A DNA stretch of 64,000 nt from a virus (Duplodnaviria > Heunggongvirae > Uroviricota > Caudoviricetes). A program made the position numbers and the translations under genes. Below the pieces are notes generated by a model that was not told the origin of the DNA, made no database searches, and was given only the letters and a program-made list of their open reading frames with translations. Of the stretch, positions 2,735 to 51,846 are shown in pieces (within the stretch, counting starts at the first letter, position 1; every line of letters begins with the position of its first letter). The stretch is taken from the IMG/VR virus record IMGVR_UViG_3300001598_000045, positions 1 to 64,000 of that record; one strand, given 5' to 3'.

Positions 2735-2768
2735 TACCGTTTATAAAAAAGTATTTACCTTATATATG
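2735..2768 (+). promoter_or_regulatory. conserved phage promoter motif (plus-strand copy)
   Basis: TACCGTTTATAAAAAAGTATTTACCTTATATATG matches the ACCGYCT...CCTTATATATG consensus seen upstream of many genes. The ATG of ORF 2792 is 24 nt downstream. Confidence 0.6.
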
Positions 2769-2791: not shown

Positions 2792-3148
2792 ATGAAGATA
2801 CTTATTGGATTATTAATTATTAGTGTATTTATTATTATTAGACTTTTAATGTCATTATCAGATGATAAATACTATGAATCTATGCTAAAGACGTTTAAAG
2901 TAACTGTTAAGTATAAGGTTCATTATAGTAGTTCAGAGTCAAAAGAGTATACTAAAGAATTTATTGTAAGAAATAAGCAAAAAGAAAATATTAGAGTTGA
3001 GACTAGTGTAAGAGCTAGTAGGGCTAATATTCTCTCTATATACTGGACTTACACTGCTAATGTTCCTCATGAAATTAGAATAGAGGAAACTACCGCACCT
3101 ATTGAAATTATTGAATATAGTGCAGAGGAAGTAGTAGAAGAGGCTTAA
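2792..3148 (+). CDS. hypothetical membrane-anchored protein
   Basis: 118 aa with an N-terminal hydrophobic helix. Confidence 0.5.
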   Translation: MKILIGLLIISVFIIIRLLMSLSDDKYYESMLKTFKVTVKYKVHYSSSESKEYTKEFIVRNKQKENIRVETSVRASRANILSIYWTYTANVPHEIRIEETTAPIEIIEYSAEEVVEEA

Positions 3149-3652: not shown

Positions 3653-3694
3653 AAAGGTAGAGAATTAATCTATCTTTTATTTTCCTTATATTTG

Positions 3695-4252
3695 ATGAGA
3701 GAGTATGACTTATTTAGCTTAAGAGATAAATTAAATAATCTGGATATTAATGTAATAAGAGATACTTGGAGAGATGGTGAATTGTGGGCATCTGGTTTAT
3801 CCGATATTTATAAATTATCAGAAGACGATATAACTGAATATGTAGTTGGTGAAAAAATAAAAATAGATAAAGAAATATTTACAATTATTTCATTATATGA
3901 AAATACTAAATTACCTAAAGTAGTAATGTATGATGAGAATATCTCTAATATTTCTTGGAATAAAGCAATGAAACTATATATACCTGATGATTTTAAATAT
4001 ATACCTAGTATTAATGATTTTTTAGAAATAAAAGATAATTTAAAGAAAGTATTCAGTACTATTCCTGAAATAATTAATGAAAGTAATAAGCAAAATGGTG
4101 TATGGTCAAGATCACTATTTACATCAACTTCAAAAGATGAACGATTTGCATATTATTTTAATGTATATACTCAAGAATCTTATTTAGTATTGAAAGAATT
4201 AGAAAGCCCTGTTATGAATACAGTATTTTTTAAAAAGCTAAGAAATATATGA
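3695..4252 (+). CDS. hypothetical protein
   Basis: ATG at 3695 follows CCTTATATTTG directly, so the mRNA would be leaderless. The ORF track lists a TTG start at 3692. Confidence 0.5.
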   Translation: MREYDLFSLRDKLNNLDINVIRDTWRDGELWASGLSDIYKLSEDDITEYVVGEKIKIDKEIFTIISLYENTKLPKVVMYDENISNISWNKAMKLYIPDDFKYIPSINDFLEIKDNLKKVFSTIPEIINESNKQNGVWSRSLFTSTSKDERFAYYFNVYTQESYLVLKELESPVMNTVFFKKLRNI

Positions 4253-4927: not shown

Positions 4928-5242
4928 TTAACATTCTTTTTTATCATCGTATAGAATAGTTATCTCTCTCATTGATCTGTGGGAAATCATATTTGATCCT
5001 GGTCTTTTTGGATCTGGAGAATCGAGGGATGTTATTCTATATATATTAACTTTTACATCATGTATCTCTTTATTTACCATAAAGGAATTTATGATTTCAT
5101 CCTCTTTGTAAAAACTTTCATCAGATATCGTAGTGCGCAAGTTCTCTGACTGTCCTGCTCTTTGTGCATTATTAATATCTGTCCAAGCTTGCTCCTCAGA
5201 TGTTCTGCTATTACCGATAAATCTAAATGTTTTAATTTTCAT
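4928..5242 (-). CDS. hypothetical protein
   Basis: 104-aa ORF; promoter motif about 27 nt upstream. Confidence 0.5.
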   Translation of the reverse strand: MKIKTFRFIGNSRTSEEQAWTDINNAQRAGQSENLRTTISDESFYKEDEIINSFMVNKEIHDVKVNIYRITSLDSPDPKRPGSNMISHRSMREITILYDDKKEC

Positions 5243-5263: not shown

Positions 5264-5294
5264 CAAATATAAGGCTTTAGTGACTTTAGGAACG
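5264..5294 (-). promoter_or_regulatory. conserved phage promoter motif
   Basis: Minus-sense CCGTTCCTAAAGTCACTAAAGCCTTATATTTG. Confidence 0.55.
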
Positions 5295-5316
5295 GAAAAA
5301 AAATAAGCTAGATATA

Positions 5317-5978: not shown

Positions 5979-6754
5979 TTATGACGTTTTATTTCTGTAT
6001 ATTGTCTATCAGGCTCACAGCACCTTGAATAAACATGTCCAGGTATTCTGTCTAAATAATCTTCTATTAACATTTCTACTTCAGGATTTTCATATGCATT
6101 AAATATTATAATAGAATCATTAGTTAGTCTTGTAATTAATGTTTGTAATATTTTTTCATCCTCTTCATATTCATGAGATGCATCAAATAAGACAAAATCA
6201 TAATTTGTGACAGAACTGCGTAACATCTTTGCCGCATTACCAAAGTATATATTAATCCCGGTAGTATCCCCTAGAGTTTTTTCTAAAAATGTTGCATAAA
6301 ATAAGTTCTTTTCGTAGCAATCATAAGTTTTTATAGATCCTTTAAATTTATTATAAAAAAATCTTGTAGTTGCTCCGAATTTTGTTCCAATCTCTGCTAC
6401 ATAAGATAGTTTTTTGGGAAATAAATAATCTAAATCAGGGATAGGTTCAACACAATCAAAATGAAGATATACACTATCATAATATATATATTTTCTTGAT
6501 ATATCACAAAAATCTGTAAATTCAAATTTACATGAAGTAGGATTAAATGATTTTACTACATGTGGTTTATTTACAAAAAGGCCAGTTACTCCAGTTTCTT
6601 TATGTATAACTATATTATTTTTAGAAAACATTATATAGTTTTCATTTTTACTAAAATATAATTTATCATAACAACTAGCACTTATATTATTTTTAGAGTT
6701 TATGTTATATATTCCATTACTATCTTTTATTCCAAACTCTTCTAAATTTATCAT
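5975..6754 (-). CDS. putative SAM-dependent methyltransferase (class I, FkbM/O-MTase-like)
   Basis: VAEIGTKFGATT resembles glycine-rich MTase motif I, and YDFVLFDASHEY is an acidic post-I-like block. Weak, motif-only call. Confidence 0.4.
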   Translation of the reverse strand: MINLEEFGIKDSNGIYNINSKNNISASCYDKLYFSKNENYIMFSKNNIVIHKETGVTGLFVNKPHVVKSFNPTSCKFEFTDFCDISRKYIYYDSVYLHFDCVEPIPDLDYLFPKKLSYVAEIGTKFGATTRFFYNKFKGSIKTYDCYEKNLFYATFLEKTLGDTTGINIYFGNAAKMLRSSVTNYDFVLFDASHEYEEDEKILQTLITRLTNDSIIIFNAYENPEVEMLIEDYLDRIPGHVYSRCCEPDRQYTEIKRHK

Positions 6755-7104
6755 AAGAATTTTACTTGTTTTATTTCAATTTCTTTATTTTCTAGCATAC
6801 TGAGAACTTTCATATGTATTATCTCTTTTGCTACTTTTTTATCTGGATTAATTAACCCCCAAGATCGATTATATAAAATTTTTATTAAATTTTTTATGGC
6901 ATCTTCTTTTGTTTTATAGAACATGGTTAGACTTCTAGGATGTCTGTATATTCTATCATTCCACAAAATATAATAGGCAATGCCATTATTATCGGTTTTA
7001 GGCGGTTTACAAAATAAATGTGTTACTAAATAAAATAATTGTTCTGTAAATAATACTTTCACAATTATAAGGAAAATAAAAGGTGGATTAAATTTCCACC
7101 TCAT
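6751..7104 (-). CDS. hypothetical protein
   Basis: 117-aa ORF. Confidence 0.45.
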   Translation of the reverse strand: MRWKFNPPFIFLIIVKVLFTEQLFYLVTHLFCKPPKTDNNGIAYYILWNDRIYRHPRSLTMFYKTKEDAIKNLIKILYNRSWGLINPDKKVAKEIIHMKVLSMLENKEIEIKQVKFL

Positions 7105-7513: not shown

Positions 7514-8040
7514 ACTATTATTGCTTCTTTATCGTTTAATACTATAGAACCATCACAAGTTTGAATAACTAATCTTGTTTCGGGCTCTAATAATTCACTA
7601 TTTATATATTTATCCTGTTTATATATTTTATCTATTTGTTCTTTAGTAAAATTATCCCCAAAATCTTCAATAGGAAAAATTATTCTTTTCGGAATATCAA
7701 TACAATGAGTACGTAGTGGTCCAATACTTATTTCATCTAAATCTCCGTATAGAGTAGATTCTAATACTATATCATCCGGGTTTAATGCTATATATTCATC
7801 TAAAATACTAGGAGTTAGTGATTTTAAAATATTAAATATATTAATTCCAGTCAGTGGTGTACTACTTAATAAACTAGGACCAACTAAATCAAATCCATAA
7901 AAATATTCGAAGCATTCACCACCACCTATAATAACAGGCAATTCCATATACTGTCTTGGAATTTTCGACAATGCTATTAATAAATCATTCCATGTAATTT
8001 TTCGTTTCATACATTTATAAGGATTCCAGAAGTATTTCAT
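7510..8040 (-). CDS. hypothetical protein
   Basis: 176-aa ORF. Confidence 0.45.
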   Translation of the reverse strand: MKYFWNPYKCMKRKITWNDLLIALSKIPRQYMELPVIIGGGECFEYFYGFDLVGPSLLSSTPLTGINIFNILKSLTPSILDEYIALNPDDIVLESTLYGDLDEISIGPLRTHCIDIPKRIIFPIEDFGDNFTKEQIDKIYKQDKYINSELLEPETRLVIQTCDGSIVLNDKEAIIV

Positions 8041-17768: not shown

Positions 17769-18606
17769 ATAAGATGCTTTCCAAAACGCTAAGGTTTTGA
17801 ATTTCTACAAAAGATTTGTTTAACTTTATAACTCCAGGTATTTTCTCCGAAAGTTTATCTTTATCTATTCGTAATGGAGTTTTATTAAACATTCTTAAAA
17901 TATACGTATCTGAATTCGTCCTTACAACAAATCCATCTGCATCATAATAGAAGTAGTCCATATGAACTGGAAAATTTCTATCTAATAGTTTTATTACTCT
18001 ATTATTAAACTCCATAGTTGGAGCATTTTTTAGTGAAGTTCTGAATCCTGTTTGAACTCTCTCTTCATTAAGTATATATTTAATAGTAGTTGTCATAAAC
18101 TCTAGACTACTTTTCCAAGCGGCTTCTTCCGTTCTTTCACCGCCACGGACTCCTATCATCGCATAGGATAAGGGATTAAGTTCCCCTGTTGTATCTGAAA
18201 TGTCTATTGGACGAATCAAGTTTTCATCAATATTTTTCCAACTTTCTTCATCTATTTTAAAAACGTTTCTAAATTCCTTTTTCCCCCATCGCCAAATACG
18301 GCCAATAGAAGATAAAGCTCTACCACTTTCGTGAATATCCCCCTGATGATGATCAAATCTTCCCAGGAAAACATCATAAACAATTGCATTCTCAGGTATC
18401 TTAAAGTTAGGATCCCGAGTTCTAATAACTTTTGTCAAAATACTCTTCTCTTTAAAATAAAGTTGTAGAAGAGCAGTAGTGAGTACATCATCCGCATGAC
18501 ATACTCCATCATGTGTAACCAAAAGAACTTCTTTCTCTTGGTCAAAGTTTTCCAATAAATTTCGCATTGTTTTTAATTTAAATTGTTCCAAAATAAAACC
18601 TGGCAA
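17767..18606 (-). CDS. MYG1/UPF0160-like metal-dependent hydrolase
   Basis: THDGVCHADDV and GRFDHHQGD match the HDGxFHxDE and DHH blocks of the MYG1 family. Confidence 0.55.
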   Translation of the reverse strand: MPGFILEQFKLKTMRNLLENFDQEKEVLLVTHDGVCHADDVLTTALLQLYFKEKSILTKVIRTRDPNFKIPENAIVYDVFLGRFDHHQGDIHESGRALSSIGRIWRWGKKEFRNVFKIDEESWKNIDENLIRPIDISDTTGELNPLSYAMIGVRGGERTEEAAWKSSLEFMTTTIKYILNEERVQTGFRTSLKNAPTMEFNNRVIKLLDRNFPVHMDYFYYDADGFVVRTNSDTYILRMFNKTPLRIDKDKLSEKIPGVIKLNKSFVEIQNLSVLESIL

Positions 18607-18650
18607 GATCTAACTTTACCAGGTTCGTTTATTATTCATATATAAGGCTA

Positions 18651-19121
18651 TTAAGACTTTAGAGGCGTATTAATATTTAGCATATTATTAATACTATTTA
18701 CTTGATTTGTATCAAATATTGTTTTTATAGAATCATTATTATTTAATTTTTCTATCTTTTCCTCTAGTCTATTAATTACTTGCTCTAGATTTTTTATTTT
18801 ATCGTCGAGTTTAGTAATTAATTCTATTCTATCTGTAATTATTTTTTCTAATAATGGTGTAGGATTATCAATTACCTTTTCTAATTCTAATTTTACTAAT
18901 TCATTTATCAGGTCTTTTAGCTCAATATCTGAATTATCTTTTAAGTAATCATTTAAACTACTACATATATTTTCTGCTATATTTACTAGTTTACTTAATC
19001 TTTCATCACCATAAATATAACTAGTTGTTGTACTTACTATGTTATTATTATCAAAGTAATCTTTAATTGTACCATAGCTTGTAGTAACTCCAGTATTATT
19101 TATTATACTATTATTCATTGT
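18651..19121 (-). CDS. hypothetical coiled-coil protein
   Basis: Start placed at the internal Met (MNNSIINN) just downstream of the preceding stop. The ORF-track start at 19241 overlaps the phosphatase gene by 130 nt. Confidence 0.45.
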   Translation of the reverse strand, partial: TMNNSIINNTGVTTSYGTIKDYFDNNNIVSTTTSYIYGDERLSKLVNIAENICSSLNDYLKDNSDIELKDLINELVKLELEKVIDNPTPLLEKIITDRIELITKLDDKIKNLEQVINRLEEKIEKLNNNDSIKTIFDTNQVNSINNMLNINTPLKS

Positions 19122-20890: not shown

Positions 20891-21292
20891 TTAAATTTTC
20901 TGTGATAAAAAATGTAATCTAAAACCGGCACTAGTATTTTTCCAACACCAATACCCTTTTATTACTCCATTTGTCATATTATTAACTACATTAAGAAGTT
21001 CACCGCCAGATATTGTAAACCAAGTTAGGCTCTCTTTGAATAGATTATACTCTACATCTAGCTTTTTCCTTAACTCAAGTCCACCACTATAATCATTCCA
21101 AGTATTCCAAAAAGCTTCATATATGTCTTTTAATTGAATAGGGCATAATCTTAATTTTTCATAACCTAAGATAGCCGCTAATTCTAAATAGAATTTGTTT
21201 TCTATTCTTTTATAATTATTTTTTATAACAATTTCATTTTCATAGAATGAGTATGGATACCCAAGCTCATCTATATAAATATATTCATTCAT
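20891..21292 (-). CDS. hypothetical protein
   Basis: 133-aa ORF. Confidence 0.45.
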   Translation of the reverse strand: MNEYIYIDELGYPYSFYENEIVIKNNYKRIENKFYLELAAILGYEKLRLCPIQLKDIYEAFWNTWNDYSGGLELRKKLDVEYNLFKESLTWFTISGGELLNVVNNMTNGVIKGYWCWKNTSAGFRLHFLSQKI

Positions 21293-21324
21293 ATCAATTA
21301 TAAGGATTTTAAGAAAGTATTAGT

Positions 21325-21336
21325 CCCTTATATATG
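21325..21336 (+). promoter_or_regulatory. promoter core element CCCTTATATATG, 2 nt before the ATG
   Basis: Same core as the other copies; near-leaderless arrangement. Confidence 0.5.
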
Positions 21337-21338
21337 TT

Positions 21339-21683
21339 ATGAGAAAAATTTATATAGTAAAAGTAAATAAACCTATATTTTTTCCAGAAACTTTTATTGG
21401 TGGAGCTTTTAGTAAGAAGTTCATAGCTGTACAAAAAAATGAAACTACGATATATTTAATAAATTGTGAAAACTTAGTTAAAATCTCATTATTAAACTTA
21501 TTTAAAAAAGATAATTGGTTAGTAATAGAAGGATCTCCAGAAAAAGTTAATGAGGTTATAAATTATTCATTATTTTCAAAAGAGTTACAGATTTCAGAGA
21601 CTAATTACAATGAGTTATTAGATAGGTGTACTTCAATAGTGAGCAAAAGATTAGAATATTTAAAAGAGGTTATTCGTGATTAA
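21339..21683 (+). CDS. hypothetical protein
   Basis: 114-aa ORF. Confidence 0.5.
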   Translation: MRKIYIVKVNKPIFFPETFIGGAFSKKFIAVQKNETTIYLINCENLVKISLLNLFKKDNWLVIEGSPEKVNEVINYSLFSKELQISETNYNELLDRCTSIVSKRLEYLKEVIRD

Positions 21684-21725
21684 GAAATATTACGTTTAAC
21701 TTCTATTATTTTCCTTATAAATAGA

Positions 21726-22664
21726 ATGATATTAAAAATAGAAATAAATAACTTTAATAGAGAAGAATCAATTATTTTTAATTTTCAAAGAGGAATTAAT
21801 GATCTCGAGTATAGAGAGCGTGATATAGAGGATCTTCTTAGTATCTTAACTATTTTACGAAATCCTACTAATCAATTTTCAGAAAGATTACTAGGAAATC
21901 TTAAAGATGAGATAACTATAGTAACGATAATATTTACTAAAGATGGAAAATCTATTTATGAGTATTCTATATCCTGCTTACCAGAGAAATATTTAATGGA
22001 ATCTTTGATAAAAGATGGCGTCCTAGTTTCATATTGGGATTTTTCGGGGCTTGCTGAATTGAATGGTAATAATATAGAAATATTTGCAAAAGAGATGCCG
22101 ACTATTCCACATATGTTAGTGGGATTACGTGGTTATGATGACCAGCTTAGTGATTTTGGAAAAGCAATATGTGAAGAATTAGTTAATGTATATACTTTAC
22201 CAGATTTTTCCTTATTTATGCTTGAAAACAAACAAATTAATATACAGGATATAGTATATTTTTATAAAAATACTTATCCTAAAATAGAACCATTTAAATA
22301 TTGGAATGATATATTACCAAAACTAGATCTAAATATAAGTGGAATAACTAAACAAGGTGAGATAGTTACTAATGGTAATTTTAACATTAAATTTTCTGAT
22401 ACTGGTTCTGGTGCAATGAGGATGATTTACATAATTCCATTGCTATTTGAGTCTATGAAATCAAATAATGGTATATTTATATATCCAGGTTTTTGTGAAA
22501 ATTTACATATGTTATTGATTAAATTTTTATTAGAAACTTGGTCAAAAATAACAGTAGATAATCCAGAAAAGAATTGTCTCAATCAGTTTATTTCTAAATT
22601 ACCTGCTGAATATGATAAGTATTTTAAACTAAATATATATAGATATAATGATAAGAATAAATGA
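21726..22664 (+). CDS. hypothetical protein
   Basis: 312-aa ORF; CCTTATAAATAGA lies immediately upstream of the ATG. Confidence 0.5.
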   Translation: MILKIEINNFNREESIIFNFQRGINDLEYRERDIEDLLSILTILRNPTNQFSERLLGNLKDEITIVTIIFTKDGKSIYEYSISCLPEKYLMESLIKDGVLVSYWDFSGLAELNGNNIEIFAKEMPTIPHMLVGLRGYDDQLSDFGKAICEELVNVYTLPDFSLFMLENKQINIQDIVYFYKNTYPKIEPFKYWNDILPKLDLNISGITKQGEIVTNGNFNIKFSDTGSGAMRMIYIIPLLFESMKSNNGIFIYPGFCENLHMLLIKFLLETWSKITVDNPEKNCLNQFISKLPAEYDKYFKLNIYRYNDKNK

Positions 22665-24352: not shown

Positions 24353-24441
24353 AGTATATAATAGGATTCGAACCTATGACTTCCTTTAATTATATTCTCC
24401 AACTATAATTAATGGTGTTCTACCGACTGAACTATATATTT
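24353..24441 (-). tRNA. tRNA-like gene with atypical anticodon/variable region (possible intron or pseudo-tRNA)
   Basis: Minus-sense sequence has a canonical D-arm (TA-GTTC-AGTCGGTA-GAAC-A) and T-arm (ATAGG-TTCGAAT-CCTAT). The acceptor stem has 5 bp plus 2 terminal mismatches. 38 nt lie between the D and T arms, containing a 9-bp palindrome ttaattata/tataattaa. No standard 7-nt anticodon loop can be drawn. Confidence 0.45.
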
Positions 24442-24452
24442 CTTATTTCTTC

Positions 24453-24495
24453 ATATATAAGGCTTTAGGCCTTTTATAGACGGTAATTCTATTTT
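24453..24495 (-). promoter_or_regulatory. conserved phage promoter motif driving the tRNA-like gene
   Basis: Minus-sense AGAATTACCGTCTATAAAAGGCCTAAAGCCTTATATATG, about 20 nt before the tRNA-like 5' end. Confidence 0.55.
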
Positions 24496-24554: not shown

Positions 24555-24695
24555 TTAGACAATGGGTCTTTACTTGCTAGCAGGAGTTTGAGTTTCTCCG
24601 TGCCAAACCTCGATGCCGTCTTTTACGGCACCCATCGTCAGCCATGCCCCGATGGCGGCACCTGCCAATGCAAATGTCGTCTTAATGATTTTACC
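24555..24695 (-). CDS. small hydrophobic protein (46 aa; not in ORF track)
   Basis: MKVFGKIIKTTFALAGAAIGAWLTMGAVKDGIEVWHGETQTPASK; promoter motif at 24765-24800. Confidence 0.3.
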
Positions 24696-24847
24696 AAATA
24701 CTTTCATACTTTCCGTATTTTGGTTAATAAATTTCCGCTGGGATTAAAATAAAGTCACTCAATTGACCTATTTCCCATTCAAATATAAGGCTTTTATCCT
24801 TTTTCAGACGGTATTTTTTTTAAATAAAAAAGGGATAAAATCCCTTT

Positions 24848-26378: not shown

Positions 26379-26675
26379 TTACATATATAATGTTGAAACA
26401 TTTCCTTCAATTACATTTATTTCTTCTATTCTAAGAAATCCATGTATTGGAGTTGGTAGTCTATTAATTAATTCTTGTAATGTATCAAATTTCCCATATA
26501 AATCTGATATATTCGTTTCTCCAGGTATTATATTATCACCTGTTGGAAAATAACCATTATTATTTTTTAGCTCTATTAATAATGGAGTTAAGGTATCTAA
26601 TATTTCTTTAGATATTTCAGAAATCCAAAAAGACTCTTCACCTTCTCTACTATCAGTTTTAGCTATAAAAATCAT
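26379..26675 (-). CDS. hypothetical protein
   Basis: 98-aa ORF. Confidence 0.4.
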   Translation of the reverse strand: MIFIAKTDSREGEESFWISEISKEILDTLTPLLIELKNNNGYFPTGDNIIPGETNISDLYGKFDTLQELINRLPTPIHGFLRIEEINVIEGNVSTLYM

Positions 26676-27133
26676 AGTTCTATTCCTTTTATTTCTTTAA
26701 TTAATTCTTTTTTATTTAATATTATTCTATCTTCTTTTCGTTTCTGTAAGATAACTCTACAGATTGAATAACATTTATCTAAAGCTCTATCTATCCAATA
26801 ATTAAACTTTTTATCATTTTCAATTTTATCTATTTTTCTTTGTTCTATTAATGCTTTTTCAAAATAGTAACTCAAATGATGTTCTCTTGTTGGTGAGCAT
26901 AAATATTCACTCGCTAATTTAAAAGCTCTATCTCCAGCTGATCTATTTTCTAAATATTCTGGATGTTTTTCTGAATATTCATGGCCTAGTAAAAAAGCTT
27001 GGATAAAAAGTGATCTAGAATTTTCATCTAATTTTTTATGTTTAGCTATAGACTTTAGACTTAATTCTAAAAATAATTCACCTGCAATTCTCTCTAAATT
27101 ATTCTGTCTATCCTCTTTATTTTCCATATTCAT
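26672..27133 (-). CDS. hypothetical protein
   Basis: 153-aa ORF. Confidence 0.45.
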   Translation of the reverse strand: MNMENKEDRQNNLERIAGELFLELSLKSIAKHKKLDENSRSLFIQAFLLGHEYSEKHPEYLENRSAGDRAFKLASEYLCSPTREHHLSYYFEKALIEQRKIDKIENDKKFNYWIDRALDKCYSICRVILQKRKEDRIILNKKELIKEIKGIEL

Positions 27134-27166
27134 TTATAAGGAATTTTGGCAGTTATACCCGTAGTT

Positions 27167-43255: not shown

Positions 43256-44218
43256 TTAAAATAATTTATCATATCCTTTTTCTCTCATCTGACTTTCTAA
43301 TTCTCTCGACAATCTACGTATATCGTGTTGAGCACTATTAGCAGATCTCAAGAAAAAGAATCCAATTTTCTCTGGACTATTTTGAGGTGGAGTTTTAAAC
43401 CAATCCTCTAAATAACCACACATACATAATTCTGTTTTAGTATCATTGCATAAAACACCTCGAGCATCTTCTGGATTTAATTTATTATTCTCTAAATTAA
43501 CCTCAAATAAATACTCATCTTCGCATGCTTTCCAGAAATTATAACGACTCTTAACCAATTTACTCATACCACAAAGTTCATCTATTAACTCATTTTCATC
43601 ATAATTTAATATATAATCTCTAGGCTCAAAAGTAACTGGATCTATAGTTGCTCCATATTGTTTCCGTAAATCATAAATCCATTCAGGTATTATATAAGTA
43701 ATCTCTGAACCAAATTTATCTTTTCCATAATTCACATATCTCTGCGATTCCTGGATATAAGAATAAACTCGATTTCTTACAATTTGATGACTTGTAGTAC
43801 GTGAACAAATCCAATGAGAAGTAACCCGATGATAATGATTTTCACATGAATCAAACCAATATCGTAAGTCTTCTTCTCTATTATTTTCTAAAAGAACACG
43901 ATAATTTGATGTAATATACCAATAATACTTTTTATCTTCTGGATCTTCTGCAATTCTTACTTTACTAAATTCATTCTTACTATAAAAATCATGAACTTCT
44001 GCATCTTCTTCTGGTAATCTTAAATAAACAGTACCAAATTCAAAACAAGCCCAATGCCCACGATCATGTAACATATTTATAAATTTAATATAAGAATCAT
44101 CAGTAATATGATCTTCAGATTTGTATGAAATTCTTGAACATCTCTCTATATGTTTCTTCATTCCTATTATCCCAGGCTCTTGACCTAGGATATCTACACT
44201 TGATCTTAAAAACTTCAT
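43256..44218 (-). CDS. thyX: flavin-dependent thymidylate synthase ThyX-like (variant RNR in place of RHR)
   Basis: HDRGHWACFEFGTVYLRL and VRNRVYSYIQESQRYVNY align to the ThyX blocks HGHxSxxEH and RHRxxSxxQxSxRY. Confidence 0.6.
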   Translation of the reverse strand: MKFLRSSVDILGQEPGIIGMKKHIERCSRISYKSEDHITDDSYIKFINMLHDRGHWACFEFGTVYLRLPEEDAEVHDFYSKNEFSKVRIAEDPEDKKYYWYITSNYRVLLENNREEDLRYWFDSCENHYHRVTSHWICSRTTSHQIVRNRVYSYIQESQRYVNYGKDKFGSEITYIIPEWIYDLRKQYGATIDPVTFEPRDYILNYDENELIDELCGMSKLVKSRYNFWKACEDEYLFEVNLENNKLNPEDARGVLCNDTKTELCMCGYLEDWFKTPPQNSPEKIGFFFLRSANSAQHDIRRLSRELESQMREKGYDKLF

Positions 44219-44306
44219 ATGTTATTTTATTTTGTTACATATATAAAGAGAGTGAGGTTACTAGGGAGAGTTTTATTAATTTGAAGAAAAAATAAAGAGG
44301 AAGATT

Positions 44307-44534
44307 TTACTCTTCCTTATCTCCCTCTTCATCAAAATGGAAGAACTTATGCATTGCTTCCATCTGACCCTTCCTCCATGCATCAAATAATAGATCATGA
44401 AGTTTTCTGTTTTTGTTCAGAAATTCTTTTTCCTCTTGTGTTTGCGGAGGAAATCCGATCTTACAGAATTTAGATCGCTTGTTTTGCAGCTGTTTATACT
44501 CCGATGCTAGAGTTGGATGTCCTAAAATTTCCAT
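44307..44534 (-). CDS. hypothetical small protein
   Basis: 75 aa; promoter motif about 22 nt upstream. Confidence 0.4.
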   Translation of the reverse strand: MEILGHPTLASEYKQLQNKRSKFCKIGFPPQTQEEKEFLNKNRKLHDLLFDAWRKGQMEAMHKFFHFDEEGDKEE

Positions 44535-44552: not shown

Positions 44553-44615
44553 TCCATATATAAGGCTTTAAAACATTATTAGGCGGTAAAAAATAAAAGG
44601 GTATATTTCAACCCT
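44553..44615 (-). promoter_or_regulatory. terminator hairpin followed by promoter motif (near-identical copy of the element at 33318-33380)
   Basis: Minus-sense AAAGGGTTGAAATATACCCTTTTATTTTTTACCGCCTAATAATGTTTTAAAGCCTTATATATGG. Confidence 0.6.
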
Positions 44616-44954: not shown

Positions 44955-45040
44955 AACTTTATAATTTTATCATTAAAAATAAAATAATGAATAATTCCTT
45001 CTCTCTTAAGGTAATTATATTCATTACATATATAAGGGTT

Positions 45041-45469
45041 TTAAACATTATTAGACGGTAATTTCTTAAAAGCATGAACTCGTAGGTCAATGTCATGGCC
45101 ATCCTTTCTGTAGTAGTCTAGATTACCATCGCTAGTATTTAAGTACCAAGCAAAATATCCAGAAAACTTAGATGAGCTCCATAAGTAAAAACCAAAAGTA
45201 TCCGTAGAAAAGTTTGAGTCTTCTGAGTTTCTAAGAAAAGCTATATTTTTACCAAACTCTTCAAACTCTTTCTTACTCGGTATCTTCCATCCTTCTGGTA
45301 ATTTTAGATTTATTGCATCATCCCAAGAAATATTTATACCTAGTTCATCTTTTAGCATTACCCATTCAGGTTTTCTGCTTGGATAAACACTAACTATGAA
45401 ACACTCTTTTCCATCCACTACTAATTCTTTCCCTAATTGTTCTCTTATTAATTTCTGTAACTTTTTCAT
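45041..45469 (-). CDS. hypothetical protein
   Basis: 142-aa ORF; promoter motif at 45023-45060. Confidence 0.45.
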   Translation of the reverse strand: MKKLQKLIREQLGKELVVDGKECFIVSVYPSRKPEWVMLKDELGINISWDDAINLKLPEGWKIPSKKEFEEFGKNIAFLRNSEDSNFSTDTFGFYLWSSSKFSGYFAWYLNTSDGNLDYYRKDGHDIDLRVHAFKKLPSNNV

Positions 45470-45599
45470 TTCAATAATAAGGAATATAGGATTAAATATT
45501 AGAAGTAAGTTTTAAGAATTGGATTTTATGTTGAGAAAAAGAAAAATAAAGGGATATAGTCTAAAGTTCTAATTCTCTAGACTACTCCCTTATTATTTT

Positions 45600-46256
45600 T
45601 TAATCTTTCAACATAGATCTTAATTCTTTATCTGACTTCTTTAATTCCTCTATCCTAAAAAATCTATCAATACTCTTAAATGATGTTAGATAGTATTGTT
45701 TTCTATCTTCTACATCATTATCAGTACCATAAGATAATACTAGGTCCTCAAAACTAATATAAGAGTCATTTAAAACTAACTTCAATGTCTCAGAATCTAT
45801 ATACTTTCTAGCTGTTCCTGGTTGTAATTCAGCTAATGTTATATGAGGATTATATTCACTAAAATCTGAAGATACTCCATACTTAATACGCAAACCTTTA
45901 TTTATTATATTTACCATATCAAATATTTCACTATCTTTCTTCAACTTTAATACTATATAATCACTGTCATTCTCAAACATACCAAGATCAAACATAGTAA
46001 ATACACCACACTCATGATCACCTTTACATAAGTTAATAAAATCTTCAAAATCAGAACCTAAGATACTTTTTACATCTCCTAATAATTCTTTTCTTGGTAA
46101 TTCTTTCCCCTGTGCATATAATAAGGTAATGTGTGAATCAAACTCTAAACCAGTATCTTTCAAATCATCATAATCAAATATAGATCCGAAATCAACTGGT
46201 GCATCTAAATTCATTGCCCACATAAGACAACTATTCATTACATCTTTAGTATCCAT
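45600..46256 (-). CDS. 2H phosphoesterase (LigT / 2',3'-cyclic phosphodiesterase family)
   Basis: Two HxT/S tetrapeptides, FDSHITLLYA and YNPHITLAEL, at the spacing typical of the 2H superfamily. Confidence 0.75.
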   Translation of the reverse strand: MDTKDVMNSCLMWAMNLDAPVDFGSIFDYDDLKDTGLEFDSHITLLYAQGKELPRKELLGDVKSILGSDFEDFINLCKGDHECGVFTMFDLGMFENDSDYIVLKLKKDSEIFDMVNIINKGLRIKYGVSSDFSEYNPHITLAELQPGTARKYIDSETLKLVLNDSYISFEDLVLSYGTDNDVEDRKQYYLTSFKSIDRFFRIEELKKSDKELRSMLKD

Positions 46257-46262
46257 ATTTTA

Positions 46263-46943
46263 TTATTTTTGATTCTTAAGTCTAAATTTAGCTTTCATTT
46301 TATTAAGATTAGCTTTTAAATCAGAACCTCCTTGATTAAATCCTTTACTATCAACTACGGTAAGCCCAAGTCCTAGTAAGTTATTTAAGAAAGTTTGGTT
46401 ATCCTCTCTAGCTGAATCTTGTCTGGCAGCGTTAATATATTGTTTCGCATTCCTGCTCAATAAAACGCTCAATTCCATTTCACCGATCTTTTGCCCAGTT
46501 ACACGATATCTACCGCGTCCCAATATTGGCTCATCTCGTTTTGCACTAATATCTCTAGAGTACATTGAGGTAGTTACTTTGTTAGAATATGATGGAATGT
46601 GATATAATTCTTCTAATGTCATATAACCACACTGTAATTCTTTCTCTACAGGTATAAACTTTCCCTGCATATCCTTAACTACTTTCTCATATTCTTCTTC
46701 TGGTAAATTATCCTTCAACTCTTTAAGATCTGTTACTGTAGACTTTGGAACTAGAATTTTATTTTGTGATTTAAGTCCTAGCTCATCCATCATCTTATCT
46801 ACTTTCTCTGGCGTATAGTCTGAAAAACAACCTACATTGAAATAATATACTTCTTCTATAGGTTTTGAATTGTGAAGCTTTATAAATTCTTCTACATCCA
46901 TTTTATCATAACGACCAGGATAGTACTTGTTTATTAAAGGCAT
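46263..46943 (-). CDS. rpoB: RNA polymerase beta subunit, C-terminal coding segment
   Basis: GRGRYRVTGQKIGEMELSVLLSRNAKQYI aligns to the bacterial beta block [22 protein letters not shown]. Confidence 0.8.
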   Translation of the reverse strand: MPLINKYYPGRYDKMDVEEFIKLHNSKPIEEVYYFNVGCFSDYTPEKVDKMMDELGLKSQNKILVPKSTVTDLKELKDNLPEEEYEKVVKDMQGKFIPVEKELQCGYMTLEELYHIPSYSNKVTTSMYSRDISAKRDEPILGRGRYRVTGQKIGEMELSVLLSRNAKQYINAARQDSAREDNQTFLNNLLGLGLTVVDSKGFNQGGSDLKANLNKMKAKFRLKNQK

Positions 46944-47083
46944 TATCTTCTTCTGCCCTGTTTTCGTCGTTTTGTATTCCTCTACTAAATCATATAACTT
47001 GTGACAGATATTTCCTAGTTCTTGTTCAACTAAAACACCTGCGATTTTACGATTACACTTATCTAATATATTTCTATATTAGC

Positions 47084-47171
47084 TAGACTATATTATCTCA
47101 TCTAGAGTTTCGCCTATAGTCTTTGAACTTTTTTTAAGTTGCTGATTTGATTTCTCATCTTTCCAGCATTT
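47084..47171 (-). ncRNA. group I intron catalytic core g (compact, no ORF)
   Basis: Minus-sense P AAATGCTGGAAAG, Q CAAATCAGCAAC, R GTTCAAAGACTATAGG, S GATAATATAGTCTAG. Confidence 0.55.
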
Positions 47172-47347
47172 AGTGAAATTTTATTACTACATATATAAAA
47201 TATAGTACTGTAGGGATTCATTACGACTTCAACACGGCGCTGCTTTCCTGACTCATCTACCATTATAGGCATTTCTTCATCCGGGGTTACAGCAGATATA
47301 ACACCTTTTCCTCCATCAAATTTATATTCTAATTTTGTATTAGAATT

Positions 47348-48381
47348 TAGACTGTATCTTTTTCAAATTGTACACAGTCGTTGAAAATTTTAATTTTTAT
47401 TTATTAATTTATATCCACTATCTTCTTCTGATAGTAATCTTTCTACATAATGTCTAGATCTATGTAATAATTTTGCACAATTAGTAATGCTCCTATATAT
47501 CGTTCCATCAGGGCCTATTATTTTATTTGATACATCAAAATTATCTACTTTATATTTAAATCCTTTTTCTGGATGAAATTTTAGCCAATTATATATAGTA
47601 CCTCTAGATACAGAATTATTTTTAGCACATTCATCCATCGTCCCATACTCTTTTCCATCTGGACCAATAATTTGACGCGCTGTTATTGAATTCGAGCCAG
47701 ATATTTTATCAATTGCCGATTGTTTTATCTTTATATTTTTTCTAGACTCACTTAATTTTTGTTTTTGTTCATCTGAAAATATAATTCCTTTTCTAGAATT
47801 TGACAATTTTTTCCTAGACTCTTCATTTAAAATATGACCTTTTCTTATCTTACTTAATAATTCTTTCGTTTCTTGTGAAGCTTTTTTTCCTTTATGAGAT
47901 TCAGATAATTTCTTTTTTGTCTCATCTGAATGTTTTCGATTAGTATTTAATTTACGTAAATAATCTATACTCTTCTCTCTCAATTCCTCTAATGATTTTA
48001 ATGAAACTCTATAAGGAATTTTATTACCATTTTCATCTAATTTATAGGTATTTTCTTTACGATCACTATGACTTGATTGAATCATTCGTAAATATGCATA
48101 TAACAGTTCATTACTGTCTGGATAAATAAATGTTAATAAATGATGCGCAATTATATGTTCTTTAAAAGTTAATAATACTAAATTATCTTTATTATCATTT
48201 CCACCTAAACATTTAGGAAGTATATGATGTTTATTTAATCCATCCCCTTTTCTCTTTATAACTCCTCTAAATTTACGTGATTCTACTAAATCGTCATATA
48301 CTTTTTTATAATTCATCTTTGCTATAATTAATAAATTTTATAAAATTTTGCTGATTCTATATTAATAGTTCCAGCAATTCT
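47348..48381 (-). mobile_element. group I intron core f carrying the HNH homing endonuclease ORF between the P/Q and R/S elements
   Basis: P/Q AGAATTGCTGGAACTATTAATATAGAATCAGCA at 48349-48381. R/S TTTCAACGACTGTGTA...AAAAGATACAGTCTAAA at 47348-47387, directly after the HNH stop. Confidence 0.6.
47390..48316 (-). CDS. HNH homing endonuclease with NUMOD3 and NUMOD1-like DNA-binding repeats
   Basis: HHILPKCLGGNDNKDNLVLLTFKEHIIAHH (HNH). Repeated KKLSESHKGK/RKKLSNSRKG (NUMOD3-like) and C-terminal GPDGKEYGTMDECAKNNSVSRGTIYNWL x2 (NUMOD1-like). Confidence 0.85.
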   Translation of the reverse strand: MNYKKVYDDLVESRKFRGVIKRKGDGLNKHHILPKCLGGNDNKDNLVLLTFKEHIIAHHLLTFIYPDSNELLYAYLRMIQSSHSDRKENTYKLDENGNKIPYRVSLKSLEELREKSIDYLRKLNTNRKHSDETKKKLSESHKGKKASQETKELLSKIRKGHILNEESRKKLSNSRKGIIFSDEQKQKLSESRKNIKIKQSAIDKISGSNSITARQIIGPDGKEYGTMDECAKNNSVSRGTIYNWLKFHPEKGFKYKVDNFDVSNKIIGPDGTIYRSITNCAKLLHRSRHYVERLLSEEDSGYKLINKN

Positions 48382-49467
48382 TAATCTATATAGACCTGGA
48401 TTATTTGATCTATTCGTAACTTTCGATCCTACCATAAGAGTAGTACGTTTTATCAATCTAACTCGTACGGTATAAACTACCTTATACTCATCTGGATTCA
48501 TAATAATTGGATCTAAAGTATCCGCAGCAATATACTCAGGAAATTTATCGTATATTACTTTTCTATTTTTATTATCATTATACTCTTTAATTACTTTTTC
48601 AGATTGTCTAGCAAAAGTAAAGTCAGGCATCTTTTCAGTTTTAGGTACTTTTGGTTTCTTCATTTCTTGAACCATAATATCAGAAACATAAGCCTCATCT
48701 ATATTGTTCGGTACTTTTAAATAATCCTCAACCGTATATTCTGTTAAATCCTTTCCTTCTTCACCAAATAATCCACCTAATTTTTCATTAAGAGCTCTAT
48801 TTATTTCATCTAATCTTACTGTTTTAAATAAAGTAACTACACTATCACCTGACTTAACTTGTGTGCCAATTGGAGCTAACCATTTTAATGATGCGCTATT
48901 CTTAACATTTATTTTTAAGTCAATAATACTATAGTGAGCCATTCTATTTGCATAAGATTCAGATACGACAAGTGCATCCTCATTTACTAAACCATGATGC
49001 GCTGAGAATAAAACTAACGTATTTAATCCCATCTTATATGTGTCTTTCTCTAAACCAACAGCTCCAGTAATCACATCGCCTTTTTTGACTTTCTGACCTA
49101 CTTTTACTTTTGGCTCAGTATAAACACAAACATCATTCATAGATTGTATTGCACTACGTCTTAATACATCTACCTCTGTCTTATCCGGTAACTCAATAAC
49201 AACTTTATCTTCATCTATTCGCTTTACTTTACCACTCTCATAAGCAAATTTTTCACTAAGAATATTGTTACTAAGCTCTTCATTATTACCAGTATCAACT
49301 AATGGTCTCTGTGCATTAACTAGAGGTATACTTTGTTTAAGCATTCCGGTGCCCATTGAGATTCGCACAGAGTCAGTACTAGAGATAAAAGGTATTCTTC
49401 TAGTTGTTTCAGAAAGACGGTAATCTGGGTGTAAATCAATTAAATCAATTTCTTCTACAGGTACCAT
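48328..49467 (-). CDS. rpoB: RNA polymerase beta subunit, middle coding segment
   Basis: [40 protein letters not shown] aligns to bacterial beta DVHPTHYGR...[36 protein letters not shown] aligns to GDKMAGRHGNKG. The last roughly 20 codons run into intron core f. ATG at 49467; the ORF track lists a TTG at 49479. Confidence 0.8.
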   Translation of the reverse strand: [379 protein letters not shown]

Positions 49468-49720
49468 TTTTCTTTTCAATCTATACTTTACTTCTACCTC
49501 ACCATTCTCATTGGGCTTTAATTTCTTTTCTTTATAATCAACAAACTCTGATGCACAAACTTTTAAATTAAGATAATCTAAATATTGTATTGTTATCTTA
49601 TTAAATTCTTTGTCATATACATCAAATAATATTCCATCATCAGTAATATGTGCCGATACTGTTAATGAGTTTTGAATATTTGTGTTTTGATTGCATTATT
49701 AGATATACTTAAAATATATC

Positions 49721-49837
49721 TTAGGACTATATCACTCTAAAATTATATTAGATTATATACATAGTCTCTGAATATAAAATATTTATTAAAGATATTTATA
49801 CTGCTGATTACTATTAAATTTAGTTTCCAGCATTTTT
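49721..49837 (-). ncRNA. group I intron catalytic core e
   Basis: Minus-sense P AAATGCTGGAAAC, Q TAATCAGCAGTA, R TTCAGAGACTATG, S AGAGTGATATAGTCCTAAG. Confidence 0.55.
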
Positions 49838-49919
49838 ATATAATTTTCCATTTATTTCAATGGCGACCAATTAAAATCGGAGTCATTTATTCAAGATATG
49901 TCAAATCTAAATATCTTGA

Positions 49920-50027
49920 TAGACTGTATCTTTATTATCTTTGCACACAGTCTTTGTATGTAATTATCTATATATTAATTAAAATAATTACACTGCTGAT
50001 TCTATATTAATAGTTCCAGCAATTCTC
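49920..50027 (-). ncRNA. group I intron catalytic core d
   Basis: Minus-sense P GAGAATTGCTGGAAC, Q GAATCAGCAGTG, R ACAAAGACTGTGTG, S AAAGATACAGTCTATC. The P/Q module is nearly identical over 37 nt to those of cores c and f. Confidence 0.55.
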
Positions 50028-50068
50028 AAAGTTCTTAGGAAATTTTAATTTCCTCGGACTACTCTTAT

Positions 50069-51031
50069 TTAATCCGCGAGATCTATAAGATCGCTCAAGC
50101 TTTCATTATATGCAGTTGTCTTTGGAATAGTTACTTTTGCTCCTAAACTTCCAAGGTTCATTGCATTTATTCCGGGTGGTACTTGCACATTAGAATCACC
50201 CGCAGTAGCTTCTTGTGTTCCTTTAAAGAATCTATATGAGAGACGAGTTATTGAAGTTATTTGATCCTGTAACTTACCTTGTTTCATGAAGTAATTTTGT
50301 ATTTGTTTACGAGCTCCATAGTAATTTCTTCTATTATTGCTCTTAAATATAAACTGCATAAAGCCGGTAGGAACAGAGTCAATAGTTTTATCAATAATTA
50401 AATCTCTTAATCTATCATCTCCAAAGGCTAGACATTCCTGAATAAGTTGAGTGGTAATATATTCTGGTTTATAGTCTAGATCTAATTTTATTTGAAACTT
50501 TTTACTTTGTCGTTCTGTAAGTTTCAATAATTCTTTCTTCTCCCCTGTAACAGTATCAATGTCGTCATATTTTATATCTATGGCTCTTTCTGAATATCCT
50601 GTTTCAAAGTTTGTTCTTTTTACTTTAAGAATCTTAGTTTTAATGTCATATCTTCTATCATAGTCAAAGTTAATAATATACTCACCTGAACCTGACATTT
50701 TAATACGACAATCATAATCTGGATTCAATTTATTAGTTGCGATACGATATGCACCCTCTATAATAAAAGCACCATCAATCTCTTTAGGTACTTCAAATTC
50801 AGATTCTAAAATTCCTGGATCATCATTTATAGTATACTCAATTTTAACTTTATGAGATGCAGTTAAACCATTCTCAATAAAATAAGATGCTGGTTTTTCT
50901 GGTTCTTCTACTATATGAAATTTTAGATCTGTTATTTTCTTTTTAGGATTATATTGATCTGCACTATTTAAAAATCTCGATACTAATATTTTAGCTCCAT
51001 GATTCTTAAAATATTCGTTAAAATTACTCAT
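50069..51031 (-). CDS. rpoB: RNA polymerase beta subunit, N-terminal coding segment
   Basis: GAFIIEGAYRIATNKL aligns to the bacterial beta block GTFVINGTERVIVSQL. ITSITRLS aligns to the region before fork loop 2. Confidence 0.8.
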   Translation of the reverse strand: MSNFNEYFKNHGAKILVSRFLNSADQYNPKKKITDLKFHIVEEPEKPASYFIENGLTASHKVKIEYTINDDPGILESEFEVPKEIDGAFIIEGAYRIATNKLNPDYDCRIKMSGSGEYIINFDYDRRYDIKTKILKVKRTNFETGYSERAIDIKYDDIDTVTGEKKELLKLTERQSKKFQIKLDLDYKPEYITTQLIQECLAFGDDRLRDLIIDKTIDSVPTGFMQFIFKSNNRRNYYGARKQIQNYFMKQGKLQDQITSITRLSYRFFKGTQEATAGDSNVQVPPGINAMNLGSLGAKVTIPKTTAYNESLSDLIDLAD

Positions 51032-51381
51032 TACAATAGTGTTTTAATATTTAATTGTTTATACTCACAATCTACCGTGTTAAAAAATTCTTCTATATCT
51101 TTTCTAATACTATCCTTTAAATCTCTAGCTTCTACATATTCACTCATTACCTTTTCACTTCTACATCTAAAAAATGCATCATAAGTAACTAAATAATTAT
51201 ATGTATCTTTTAACTGATATAATACTAACTTAACTGAGAATCTTTCATACTTATCTGGAATATTATCTTTCAAACTAGTATATAAAATATCTCTAGCCTT
51301 TATTACATCTGGATCTTTACTGTCTAATATATTATAGGGAATTTCATATGATAGCGTAATTTTAAAATAATGATCGTTCAT
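51031..51381 (-). CDS. hypothetical protein (possible small polymerase-associated subunit or downstream exon)
   Basis: 116-aa ORF between the beta' and beta genes. Confidence 0.4.
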   Translation of the reverse strand: MNDHYFKITLSYEIPYNILDSKDPDVIKARDILYTSLKDNIPDKYERFSVKLVLYQLKDTYNYLVTYDAFFRCRSEKVMSEYVEARDLKDSIRKDIEEFFNTVDCEYKQLNIKTLL

Positions 51382-51404
51382 ATTTATATCACCTTGTATA
51401 TGTA

Positions 51405-51656
51405 TTAAAAGTCCATATTCATCATGTTACCAGTTATATTTCTTACTGGTCTTGACTCTAACTGAACTTCTTTCTTTTCTGTAATTTCCTCTTTCTTCCT
51501 ATCATCCACAACAGGCATTTCCGGAGTATTTACAGTATTTTCATTTAAACTACCCGAAGACGATGAAGTAGAATAAACTACCTCACCATCTTTACGGATA
51601 ATAATATTGATATTTAATTCTCTCTCAAATCTTGGTAAATCAAATTCAATCTTCAT
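51405..51656 (-). CDS. hypothetical protein; candidate downstream exon following intron core c
   Basis: 83-aa ORF beginning about 75 nt after the S element of core c. Confidence 0.35.
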   Translation of the reverse strand: MKIEFDLPRFERELNINIIIRKDGEVVYSTSSSSGSLNENTVNTPEMPVVDDRKKEEITEKKEVQLESRPVRNITGNMMNMDF

Positions 51657-51739
51657 ATCTATTTTTCATCAAGTTTATCATTCATGAGCAAGCCCAAAAT
51701 TGTTTCCGTCCTTTAAAAAATATACATATCTGTATATTA

Positions 51740-51834: not shown

Positions 51835-51846
51835 TAAAATTCTAAA

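Follow-up and report, generated by a model that had tools for sequence, protein, structure and literature searches.

A candidate clade-specific promoter in a Jug-like jumbo phage and its possible reader

The promoter systems closest to the one considered here have been described in jumbo phages. The virion enzymes of these phages recognise AT-rich blocks of strong conservation, detectable through over-representation (PMC7598289, PMC5312081). Late promoters of phiKZ are confined to T(-3)ATG(+1), in which the G is the start (PMC7598289; PMC5312081), show no conservation upstream of TATG and are not findable by bioinformatics (PMC7598289), while those of AR9 read AACA-N6-T(A/G)+1 (PMC7598289; PMC5312081). 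Genes for sigma factors and gp33 are usual in T4-like jumbo phages (PMC7824862), and in Bacteroidota sigma-A recognises T-12 A-11 H H T-8 T-7 T-6 G-5, with a start 4-5 nt beyond this box (PMC6847099). The Jug (jumbo gut) phages, described in 2026, have genomes of 360-402 kb and 27-30% G+C with T4-like markers, many small group I introns and a single-copy rpoC; their hosts, assigned via CRISPR spacers, are Bacteroides/Phocaeicola, and the words promoter and sigma do not occur in the paper that describes them (PMC12880540). Here, we report on a signal of ~35 bp, ending CCTTATAWATG, that precedes ~30 transcription units in a 64,000-nt stretch of viral DNA (positions 1 to 64,000 of IMG/VR record IMGVR_UViG_3300001598_000045, hereafter the window), where a motif upstream of many genes on both strands had been proposed to mark promoters for a phage-encoded polymerase (the original prediction).

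By its sequence, the window can be placed as a divergent relative of the Jug clade, because of its 28.3% G+C, its RNA polymerase proteins (which share ~70% identity with their counterparts on 45 IMG/VR contigs, 230-400 kb long), its seven putative intron hairpins (see below) and its lack of Shine-Dalgarno use; genome size and host, as quoted here, are figures for Jug phages and not for the window. No GenBank phage has DNA near-identical to it. A Shine-Dalgarno-like 4-mer precedes only 4 of 104 called genes and A-rich bases precede the start codons, which is in line with a Bacteroidota host (cf. PMC6847099).

A conserved signal at gene boundaries

The signal is almost certainly the phage clade's own promoter. 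Counting the terminal G as +1, it would consist of three parts, that is, (i) an optional upstream box, (T)ACCGYCT, at -33 to -26, (ii) a weaker middle element resembling cT.AAAg at about -17 to -11 and (iii) a near-invariant core, C-10 C-9 T T A T A W W T-1 G/A+1, with transcription predicted to start at the terminal purine or within the next 1-3 nt. The informative unit is CCTTATAWWT(G/A), found in 22 copies when 1.74 are expected (at most 7 in 100 shuffles), and the two-part form ACCGYYT-N15-CCTTAT occurs 7 times against an expectation of 0.0 (100 shuffles). We discarded the 10-mer AAGCCTTATA as the motif unit, its 17 occurrences with one mismatch against 10.6 expected not being significant alone. 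Spacing is fixed, with exactly 15 nt between TACCGYCT and CCTTAT (equivalent to 11 nt before AAAG), which corrects the gap of about 17 nt given originally. The upstream box is carried by only about half of the sites.

An iterated position matrix run over the window, as the original prediction had proposed, gave 30 sites, to which two were added by inspection (7062 and 9504) and from which a weak antisense one (13439) was removed, leaving 31. The 18 places noticed originally all hold a core (18/18) at coordinates that we re-verified, apart from a shift at 62862-62880, where the core is at 62853-62863. That list was nonetheless incomplete, 13 further sites having been missed: 1360-1370 on the plus strand and, on the minus strand, 7062-7072, 8012-8022, 9504-9514, 9894-9904, 12108-12118, 21295-21305, 27131-27141, 31973-31983, 32707-32717, 44238-44248, 45472-45482 and, weakly, 58350-58360.

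Conservation, counted over 28 sites, extends to positions that the search seed did not set, namely C-10 (27/28), T-16 (22/28), C-30 (19/28) and G-29 (13/28), in a genome of 28% G+C. C-9 is present in 26 of the 28 sites, T-1 in all of them, and +1 is always a purine (G in 25). The intervening bases are looser, with T-3 in 16/28 and A-2 in 20/28, and a full TATG is found in only about half of the sites. Cores occur at 37.5 per 100 kb here versus 0.5 per 100 kb in unrelated AT-rich viral loci; these control loci belong to unrelated phages that were all that a ClpB query, intended to retrieve orthologous promoter regions and abandoned for that use, had returned.

Placement is what a promoter would lead one to expect, and upholds the original reading of the motif as promoter-like on three counts: position at gene boundaries, orientation along the downstream gene and position after terminators. 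Exact CCTTATWWWT[GA] cores are far from equally common in coding DNA, as 23 of 27 lie in the 11.1% of the window outside called open reading frames (ORFs; binomial P = 1.2e-18). Of the four 'coding' ones, those at 7062 and 8012 sit on gene boundaries and that at 17702 lies in a spurious ORF, which leaves only 22210 as truly internal. All sites are co-oriented with the next downstream gene or RNA. Terminator-like hairpins are enriched (21 vs 4.8 expected) and often stand directly upstream, with their T-run touching the motif; promoters of the E. coli type are not enriched in the window (131 vs 140 expected). At 21293-21338, two cores stand back to back in the 46-bp gap between divergent genes, each 3 nt before a start codon.

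The signal is also restricted in its distribution. Scanning 2.9 million IMG/VR viral contigs for the exact TACCGYCT-N15-CCTTATWWWTG returned 67 stretches, ~62 of them on 200-400 kb contigs of this clade, many of which also carry the polymerase homologue. In 596 Gb of bacterial and archaeal genomes, the exact two-part pattern occurs in only 39 stretches, 37 of which have random-looking, mostly G+C-richer contexts spread over all phyla, and none of the 39 is from Bacteroides/Phocaeicola (a scan of host genomes for the exact two-part pattern, not for the core alone). The other two are a motif-like context on an 80-kb Paludibacteraceae contig from a metagenome-assembled genome (MAG), and CASEGV010000001.1 (L260), 370,971 bp with 26% G+C, which is filed as an uncultured Mycoplasmatota MAG, carries the promoter of the tRNA-like gene discussed below and is probably a mis-binned phage genome. 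This restriction to the clade, together with near-absence from bacteria, argues for a phage-clade-specific signal that is not part of a host regulon, and upholds the original reading of it as the phage's rather than the host's.

Relatives share a consensus with the same three parts, i.e. the upstream box, a 'cct(g/c)aaa(g/t)' middle element and (C/T)CTTATATATG. At the locus orthologous to the promoter at 17702-17735, both boxes are invariant in seven sequences in which spacer and flanks diverge. The distant relative L136 (34% G+C, beta 65% identical) retains both polymerase and motif, and the motif persists in contigs of 40-43% G+C. We further observed dense cores, often with middle element and upstream box, in L156, L198, L230, L128/L181 and L151/L172 (14-218 kb, 29-43% G+C), which have few or no proteins in common with the window, so that the clade using this promoter is wider than the close relatives of Jug phages.

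Predicted start sites, leaders and the units served

The start can be placed from the genes themselves. At 11 sites a start codon lies 1-4 nt past the terminal G, and in six of these, belonging to ORFs of 114-312 aa, the next in-frame start is distant: 56 codons on for 12158-12168, 105 for 21295-21305, 100 for 21326-21336, 90 for 21690-21723, 60 for 62853-62886 and 29 for 3684-3694. As the two divergent cores share a 46-bp gap, no upstream promoter can serve those two genes, and start codons that abut the core, with alternatives so far away, mean that the RNA must begin no more than 3 nt past the G. At -1/+1, multisubunit polymerases usually have just such a pair as the invariant T and the purine after it. 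With this start, about one-third of the messages would be leaderless or have a leader of at most 3 nt, and roughly a further third would carry leaders of 13-24 nt that are A-rich and lack a Shine-Dalgarno sequence. The distance from core to ATG ranges from 1 to 90 nt, and box-less sites are mostly the leaderless ones that follow terminators. In relatives, CCTTATATATG-TT-ATG after a terminator, opening a long ORF, recurs, and in L103 a real tRNA cluster begins 6 nt past the G.

Box-less cores close to a start codon are found at 3684-3694 (+; CCTTATATTTG, directly after a terminator, with the ATG of 3695-4252 1 nt past the G), at 12158-12168 (+; CCTTATAATTG, ATG of 12169-12525 also 1 nt past the G) and in the divergent pair, where CCTTATAATTG at 21295-21305 (-) and CCTTATATATG at 21326-21336 (+) have the ATG of 20891-21292 and of 21339-21683, respectively, 3 nt past the G. 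The same 3-nt distance separates the G from the ATG of 32201-32704 at 32707-32717 (-; CCTTATATATG, directly after the strong terminator 32730-32749), from that of 45041-45469 at 45472-45482 (-; CCTTATTATTG) and from an ATG (9501) at 9504-9514 (-; variant core CCTTATACTTG, after a terminator). It is 2 nt at 61068-61078 (-; TCTTATATATG), which opens the ClpB-like gene 58439-61066, and at 8012-8022 (-; CCTTATAAATG), where the ATG is in frame, while at 7062-7072 (-; CCTTATAATTG, after a terminator) the terminal G itself opens an in-frame GTG of ORF 6751-7104. Further from their genes are CCTTATAATTG at 1360-1370 (+; ATG of 1386-1889 16 nt past the G), the variant core CTTTATATATG at 12108-12118 (-; serving 11789-12085 and diverging from the 12158 site) and again at 44238-44248 (-; serving the ThyX-like gene 43256-44218), CCTTATTATTG at 28397-28407 (-; after terminator 28426-28446 and serving 27167-28381) and CCTTATATATG at 31973-31983 (-; serving 31555-31956).

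Full promoters with an intact upstream box precede protein genes at 2735-2768 (+; TACCGTTT-N15-CCTTATATATG, serving 2792-3148), 44555-44588 (-; TACCGCCT-N15-CCTTATATATG, serving 44307-44534) and 61807-61840 (-; TACCGCCT-N15-CCTTATAAATA, serving 61102-61794). Boxes of other sequence accompany the core at 21690-21723 (+; TTACGTTT with CCTTATAAATA, the ATG of 21726-22664 lying 3 nt past the terminal A), 62853-62886 (-; TTCCGTTT with CCTTATAAATA, the ATG of 62240-62851 lying 2 nt past the terminal A) and 27131-27164 (-; CTACGGGT with CCTTATAAATG, serving 26672-27133, with in-frame ATGs that overlap the core and lie 4 nt past the G). Variant boxes are present at 5264-5297 (-; TTCCGTTC with CCTTATATTTG, serving 4928-5242) and 9894-9927 (-; ATCCGTGT with CCTTATATATG, serving 9550-9876).

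Downstream of sites with an upstream box, non-coding RNAs and long leaders are common, and in the mechanism that we propose the leaders would often form a hairpin with a U-run after it. One ORF-free transcript, of ~0.8 kb (16877-17700, -) and locally G+C-richer, lies directly downstream of the full promoter at 17702-17735 (-; TACCGTCT-N15-CCTTATTAATG), the one that relatives conserve at their orthologous locus, and is driven by it. Its part 16949-17260 has counterparts of 68-70% DNA identity in seven relatives, again downstream of the most conserved two-part promoter, and 16877-17700 is a candidate for a long structured non-coding RNA. At 32187-32220 (-), box ATCCGGAA and core CCTTATTAATG drive another ORF-free RNA (31983-32187, -), of ~190 nt, the first 58 nt of which form a long hairpin from the predicted first base (-13.3 kcal/mol, z = -2.2). 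A hairpin and U-run lie within 45-60 nt of the predicted starts at 18646, 33331 and 45036 (regions 18568-18637, 33253-33322 and 44958-45027, all -). The corresponding promoters are 18637-18670 (-; box TACGCCTC and core CCTTATATATG, with leader hairpin and U-run, serving 17767-18567), 33322-33355 (-; box TTCCTTCC and core CCTTATATATG, with leader hairpins and U-run, serving 32753-33232) and 45027-45060 (-; full promoter TACCGTCT-N15-CCTTATATATG, nt 1-44 of whose RNA are a hairpin beginning at the G, then a U-run). These promoter-proximal elements could yield short RNAs or act as attenuators that need antitermination for read-through. Over 72 sites from the window and its relatives, all AT-rich, no preference for hairpins to start at the terminal G was seen when compared with neighbouring offsets; individual ones that do start there are those at 45036, 32196 and 17711.

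The full promoter at 24452-24485 (-; TACCGTCT-N15-CCTTATATATG) drives the tRNA-like gene 24356-24439 (-), which scores 38.7 bits with the Rfam tRNA model; the ORF-free transcripts gave no other Rfam match. ARAGORN does not call it. Its acceptor, D and T arms are normal, and in place of the anticodon arm it has a 29-nt insert that folds into a long AT hairpin. Homologues in L108 and L260 have a full two-part promoter upstream and a stunted anticodon arm, and the L108 copy is likewise left uncalled by ARAGORN. The RNA may be a tRNA mimic or decoy; the region is rich in RNA-repair genes. Nearby, the full promoter at 24780-24813 (-; TACCGTCT-N15-CCTTATATTTG) drives a 45-aa hydrophobic Gly/Ala-rich ORF (24570-24707, -), which is locally G+C-rich, lies between this promoter and a strong terminator, and may encode a small membrane peptide.

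The first genes downstream of the signal are ORFans, ThyX, ClpB and nucleotide-metabolism genes, besides the tRNA-like and non-coding RNAs, and in the relative L136 they include nrdD. Because the genes served are non-structural, a late class is argued against, and the promoters are probably early or middle. As for the rest of its content, the window encodes a primase, a DnaB-type helicase and a second helicase for replication, ThyX-like, thymidine kinase, deoxyribosyltransferase and NUDIX proteins for nucleotide metabolism, an RNA-repair set (Tpt1, PNK phosphatase and a 2H/Acb1-like protein), a ClpB-like ATPase and many ORFans. An RNA-repair and translation-related cluster comprises an RNA 2'-phosphotransferase, a polynucleotide 3'-phosphatase (PNK3P), a 2H phosphoesterase with a weak match to Acb1 (anti-CBASS), an RF-1 domain protein and a YqeY-like protein, and includes 45600-46256 (-). 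A scan of the window's proteins, covering nearly all ORFs of 60 aa or more, turned up no virion or lysis family.

What might read the signal

The candidate reader is a bacterial-type RNA polymerase encoded in the operon 45600-58282 (-), in the order beta' then beta. The beta' pieces are 55922-57181 and 54225-55214, and the beta piece 48328-49479 matches bacterial rpoB with E = 1e-31 and the AR9 enzyme with only E = 0.016. In L136, beta is encoded by one uninterrupted 1047-aa ORF (L136:1115-4258) that joins the window pieces 50069-51031, 48328-49479, 47114-47272 and 46263-46943, and this, together with covarying hairpins and homing endonucleases between the pieces, indicates that the latter are exons. 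Seven such hairpins (-), near 35618, 47091, 47355, 49927, 51747, 53921 and 55273, share the element cAA(A/C)GACT(A/G)T ... A(T/C)AGTCT(A/G), in which GACTAT/ATAGTC covaries to GACTGT/ACAGTC. They sit between the polymerase exons and in a gene at 35.0-36.0 kb and, judged from these features, are putative small group-I-like introns; with Rfam intron models they score below threshold. Some contain HNH/NUMOD homing endonucleases (47390-48316 and the C-terminal half of 51847-54003).

At the head of the operon, 57194-58282 (-) encodes a clade-restricted, all-helical protein of 362 aa, homologues of which were found only within the clade by a profile search of 1.84 billion representative proteins. 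It was considered as a sigma factor and set aside: a lone weak phmmer match to SigI6 (E = 0.011) was not reproduced with the family profile, and one remote match in the profile search lacks a sigma domain.

In the mechanism that we propose, recognition would be by a phage-encoded specificity determinant, the likeliest being the phage's own bacterial-type beta/beta' polymerase with an accessory or specificity subunit, a reading to which we give slightly better than even chances. Several points weigh against it. Neither in sequence nor in fold does the 362-aa protein significantly resemble sigma, gp68 or gp226, and the window proteins, which cover 64 kb of a genome of ~370 kb, include no sigma, gp55, gp33, MotA or AsiA family member. 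The polymerase operon itself is preceded only by a weak degenerate variant of the motif (..CCTCAAAG ACTAATAAGTG, 58350-58383, -), and a comparable degenerate copy stands before the operon in the relative L126. Since rpoC is single-copy, the phage enzyme, were it the sole reader, would have to enter with the virion or, alternatively, a host core enzyme with a phage factor would have to read these sites first. Box centres ~26 bp apart reproduce the -33/-7 geometry of Bacteroidota, which suits a sigma-type factor on the host core. Finally, that transcription must start at or just past the terminal G is deduced from start-codon geometry. No second polymerase paralogue is present in the relatives' loci examined, which are a small share of their genomes.

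Much of this would be accommodated by a host core polymerase redirected by a phage sigma-like factor or 'appropriator' (cf. T4 middle promoters, T4 late promoters with gp55 and TATAAATA, or the SPO1 cascade), in which a sigma region-4-like or activator protein would recognise the upstream box and a region-2-like one the core, an explanation that we hold to be doubtful but worth serious attention. The fixed distance between the boxes is that of the host -33/-7 pair, the core holds TATAAAT(A/G)-like strings, and a reader present before the phage polymerase is just what the degenerate motif ahead of the operon calls for. Jug phages carry T4-like marker genes (PMC12880540), and sigma factors and gp33 are typical of T4-like jumbo phages (PMC7824862); absence of the motif from host genomes fits a phage-encoded factor equally well. 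However, the lack of these very families in the window counts against redirection too, the phage has a complete beta and beta' of its own, and a start 5-7 nt past the box, as in T4 late and sigma-type promoters, would remove start codons lying 1-3 nt past the G. A similar difficulty makes it improbable that the host Bacteroides sigma-A holoenzyme (-33 TTTG / -7 TAnnTTTG) reads these sites directly, as ordinary strong early promoters, for a start 5-6 nt past the G would cut off 11 start codons. The host assignment and the rarity of Shine-Dalgarno sequences are compatible with such a reader, as are the box spacing and the last 8 nt, TATAWWTG, which fit five of the six specified positions of TAnnTTTG, but TTTG is present in only 3/28 sites, the equivalent of T-7 is A in 20/28, CCGYCT rather than TTTG stands at -33 and the best-conserved C-10 and C-9 fall outside the host consensus. 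Moreover, Bacteroides genomes lack the exact two-part motif, as, essentially, do bacteria generally, and TAHHTTTG is not enriched in intergenic DNA. The original prediction had noted that host sigma70 -35/-10 spacing is missing; the apt consensus for this host is the Bacteroidota -33/-7 one, with which the distance between boxes does agree, and sequence and start position do not.

What the original prediction said of TATG in phiKZ late promoters was accurate (PMC7598289, PMC5312081), and the 'late' part of its analogy is a poor fit. Were the signal a late promoter of the phiKZ type, read by a non-virion polymerase, this would explain why a terminal TATG with its predicted G start matches T-3ATG+1 in a phage that encodes a multisubunit polymerase, yet the motif is conserved over ~35 bp and readily found by over-representation, TATG proper ends only about half of the sites, non-structural genes are the ones served and rpoC is single-copy in the clade. 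As the polymerase is also nearer to bacterial beta than to AR9 (the E values above) and has no separate subunit genes, we give this explanation little credence. Still less can be said for an RNA-level signal, whether an endonuclease processing site or a translation signal, in place of a DNA promoter: the motif does directly precede start codons and a tRNA-like RNA, but it follows terminators, occurs back to back in a 46-bp divergent gap where there is no upstream transcript, has its upstream box at a fixed spacing ~20 nt further 5' and lies at a distance of 1-90 nt from the ATG, which makes this reading highly improbable.

Returning to the phage's own polymerase as reader, its elements can be joined in one scenario, which is tentative and, taken as a whole, unlikely. 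Jug-like phages would be transcribed mostly or wholly by a single unsplit bacterial-type beta/beta' polymerase that enters with the virion and recognises a ~35-bp three-part promoter via a clade-specific non-sigma subunit, possibly the 362-aa protein. Initiation at the TATG purine would give leaderless messages in a host phylum without Shine-Dalgarno pairing. The upstream-box subclass would be coupled to promoter-proximal terminators, hence to temporal control by antitermination, and would drive abundant non-coding RNAs, including the ~0.8-kb RNA and the tRNA-like RNA, a possible decoy beside RNA-repair genes.

This promoter consensus was previously undescribed for the Jug-like clade, itself known only since 2026, although the kind of signal is familiar. 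Its notable features are a start site fused to the motif and the many leaderless messages, which suggests that such messages are common in a Bacteroides phage. A clade-specific promoter (i) delimits transcription units, including those of non-coding RNAs, (ii) makes a testable prediction for 5'-end mapping in existing metatranscriptomes, (iii) offers a handle for purifying its reader and (iv) could become an orthogonal expression signal in Bacteroides engineering.

Comparison with known promoter systems

Bacteroidota sigma-A promoters share with the signal the host phylum, an AT-rich 8-mer with TG as its last two bases and a spacing of ~26 bp from one box centre to the other, but differ in the TTTG found here in only 3/28 sites, the upstream CCGYCT, the start at the G and the absence of the motif from host genomes. 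T4 offers two parallels. In its middle promoters (a MotA box at -30 plus a -10) a phage box replaces the host -35 in one subclass and a -10-only subclass exists, while its late promoters (TATAAATA, gp55) resemble the TATAAAT(A/G)-like strings of the core, and the clade has T4-like structural markers. T4, however, uses the host polymerase with a start ~6 nt past the box, whereas here beta and beta' are the phage's own and the window has no MotA, AsiA, gp55 or gp33. With the T7/SP6 promoters (..CACTATA G+1) the signal has in common a contiguous block up to a G start and TATA just before +1, although no single-subunit polymerase gene is seen in the window and the block is longer and in two parts.

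The nearest parallels remain those with which we opened. Like the early promoters of phiKZ-like phages, read by the virion RNA polymerase (in AR9, AAATATATATTAT-N6-G+1), the signal contains an over-represented AT-rich block of 10-13 nt before operons of small non-structural genes, but theirs is followed by a start 6 nt further on, whereas here the block runs up to the start and an upstream box containing G+C is present. AR9 late promoters (AACA at -11 to -8, read by the non-virion RNA polymerase with gp226) also have a 4-nt block ~10 nt upstream (here CCTT, -10 to -7) and a pyrimidine/purine pair at -1/+1; the sequence is another one, the gap from block to T-1 is 5 nt here versus 6 in AR9, and the AR9 enzyme needs uracil DNA and reads the template strand, with a gp226 homologue not detected here. 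In phiKZ late promoters, as in the signal, the block ends in T-A/T-T-G and abuts the inferred start at the G, and the phage has a beta/beta' enzyme of its own. The differences are that ~35 bp are conserved here, with near-invariant CC at -10/-9 and an upstream box, that the genes are not late and that, in place of split beta/beta' in two sets (virion and non-virion) with a gp68-like protein, the enzyme is bacterial-like, unsplit bar its introns and single-copy.

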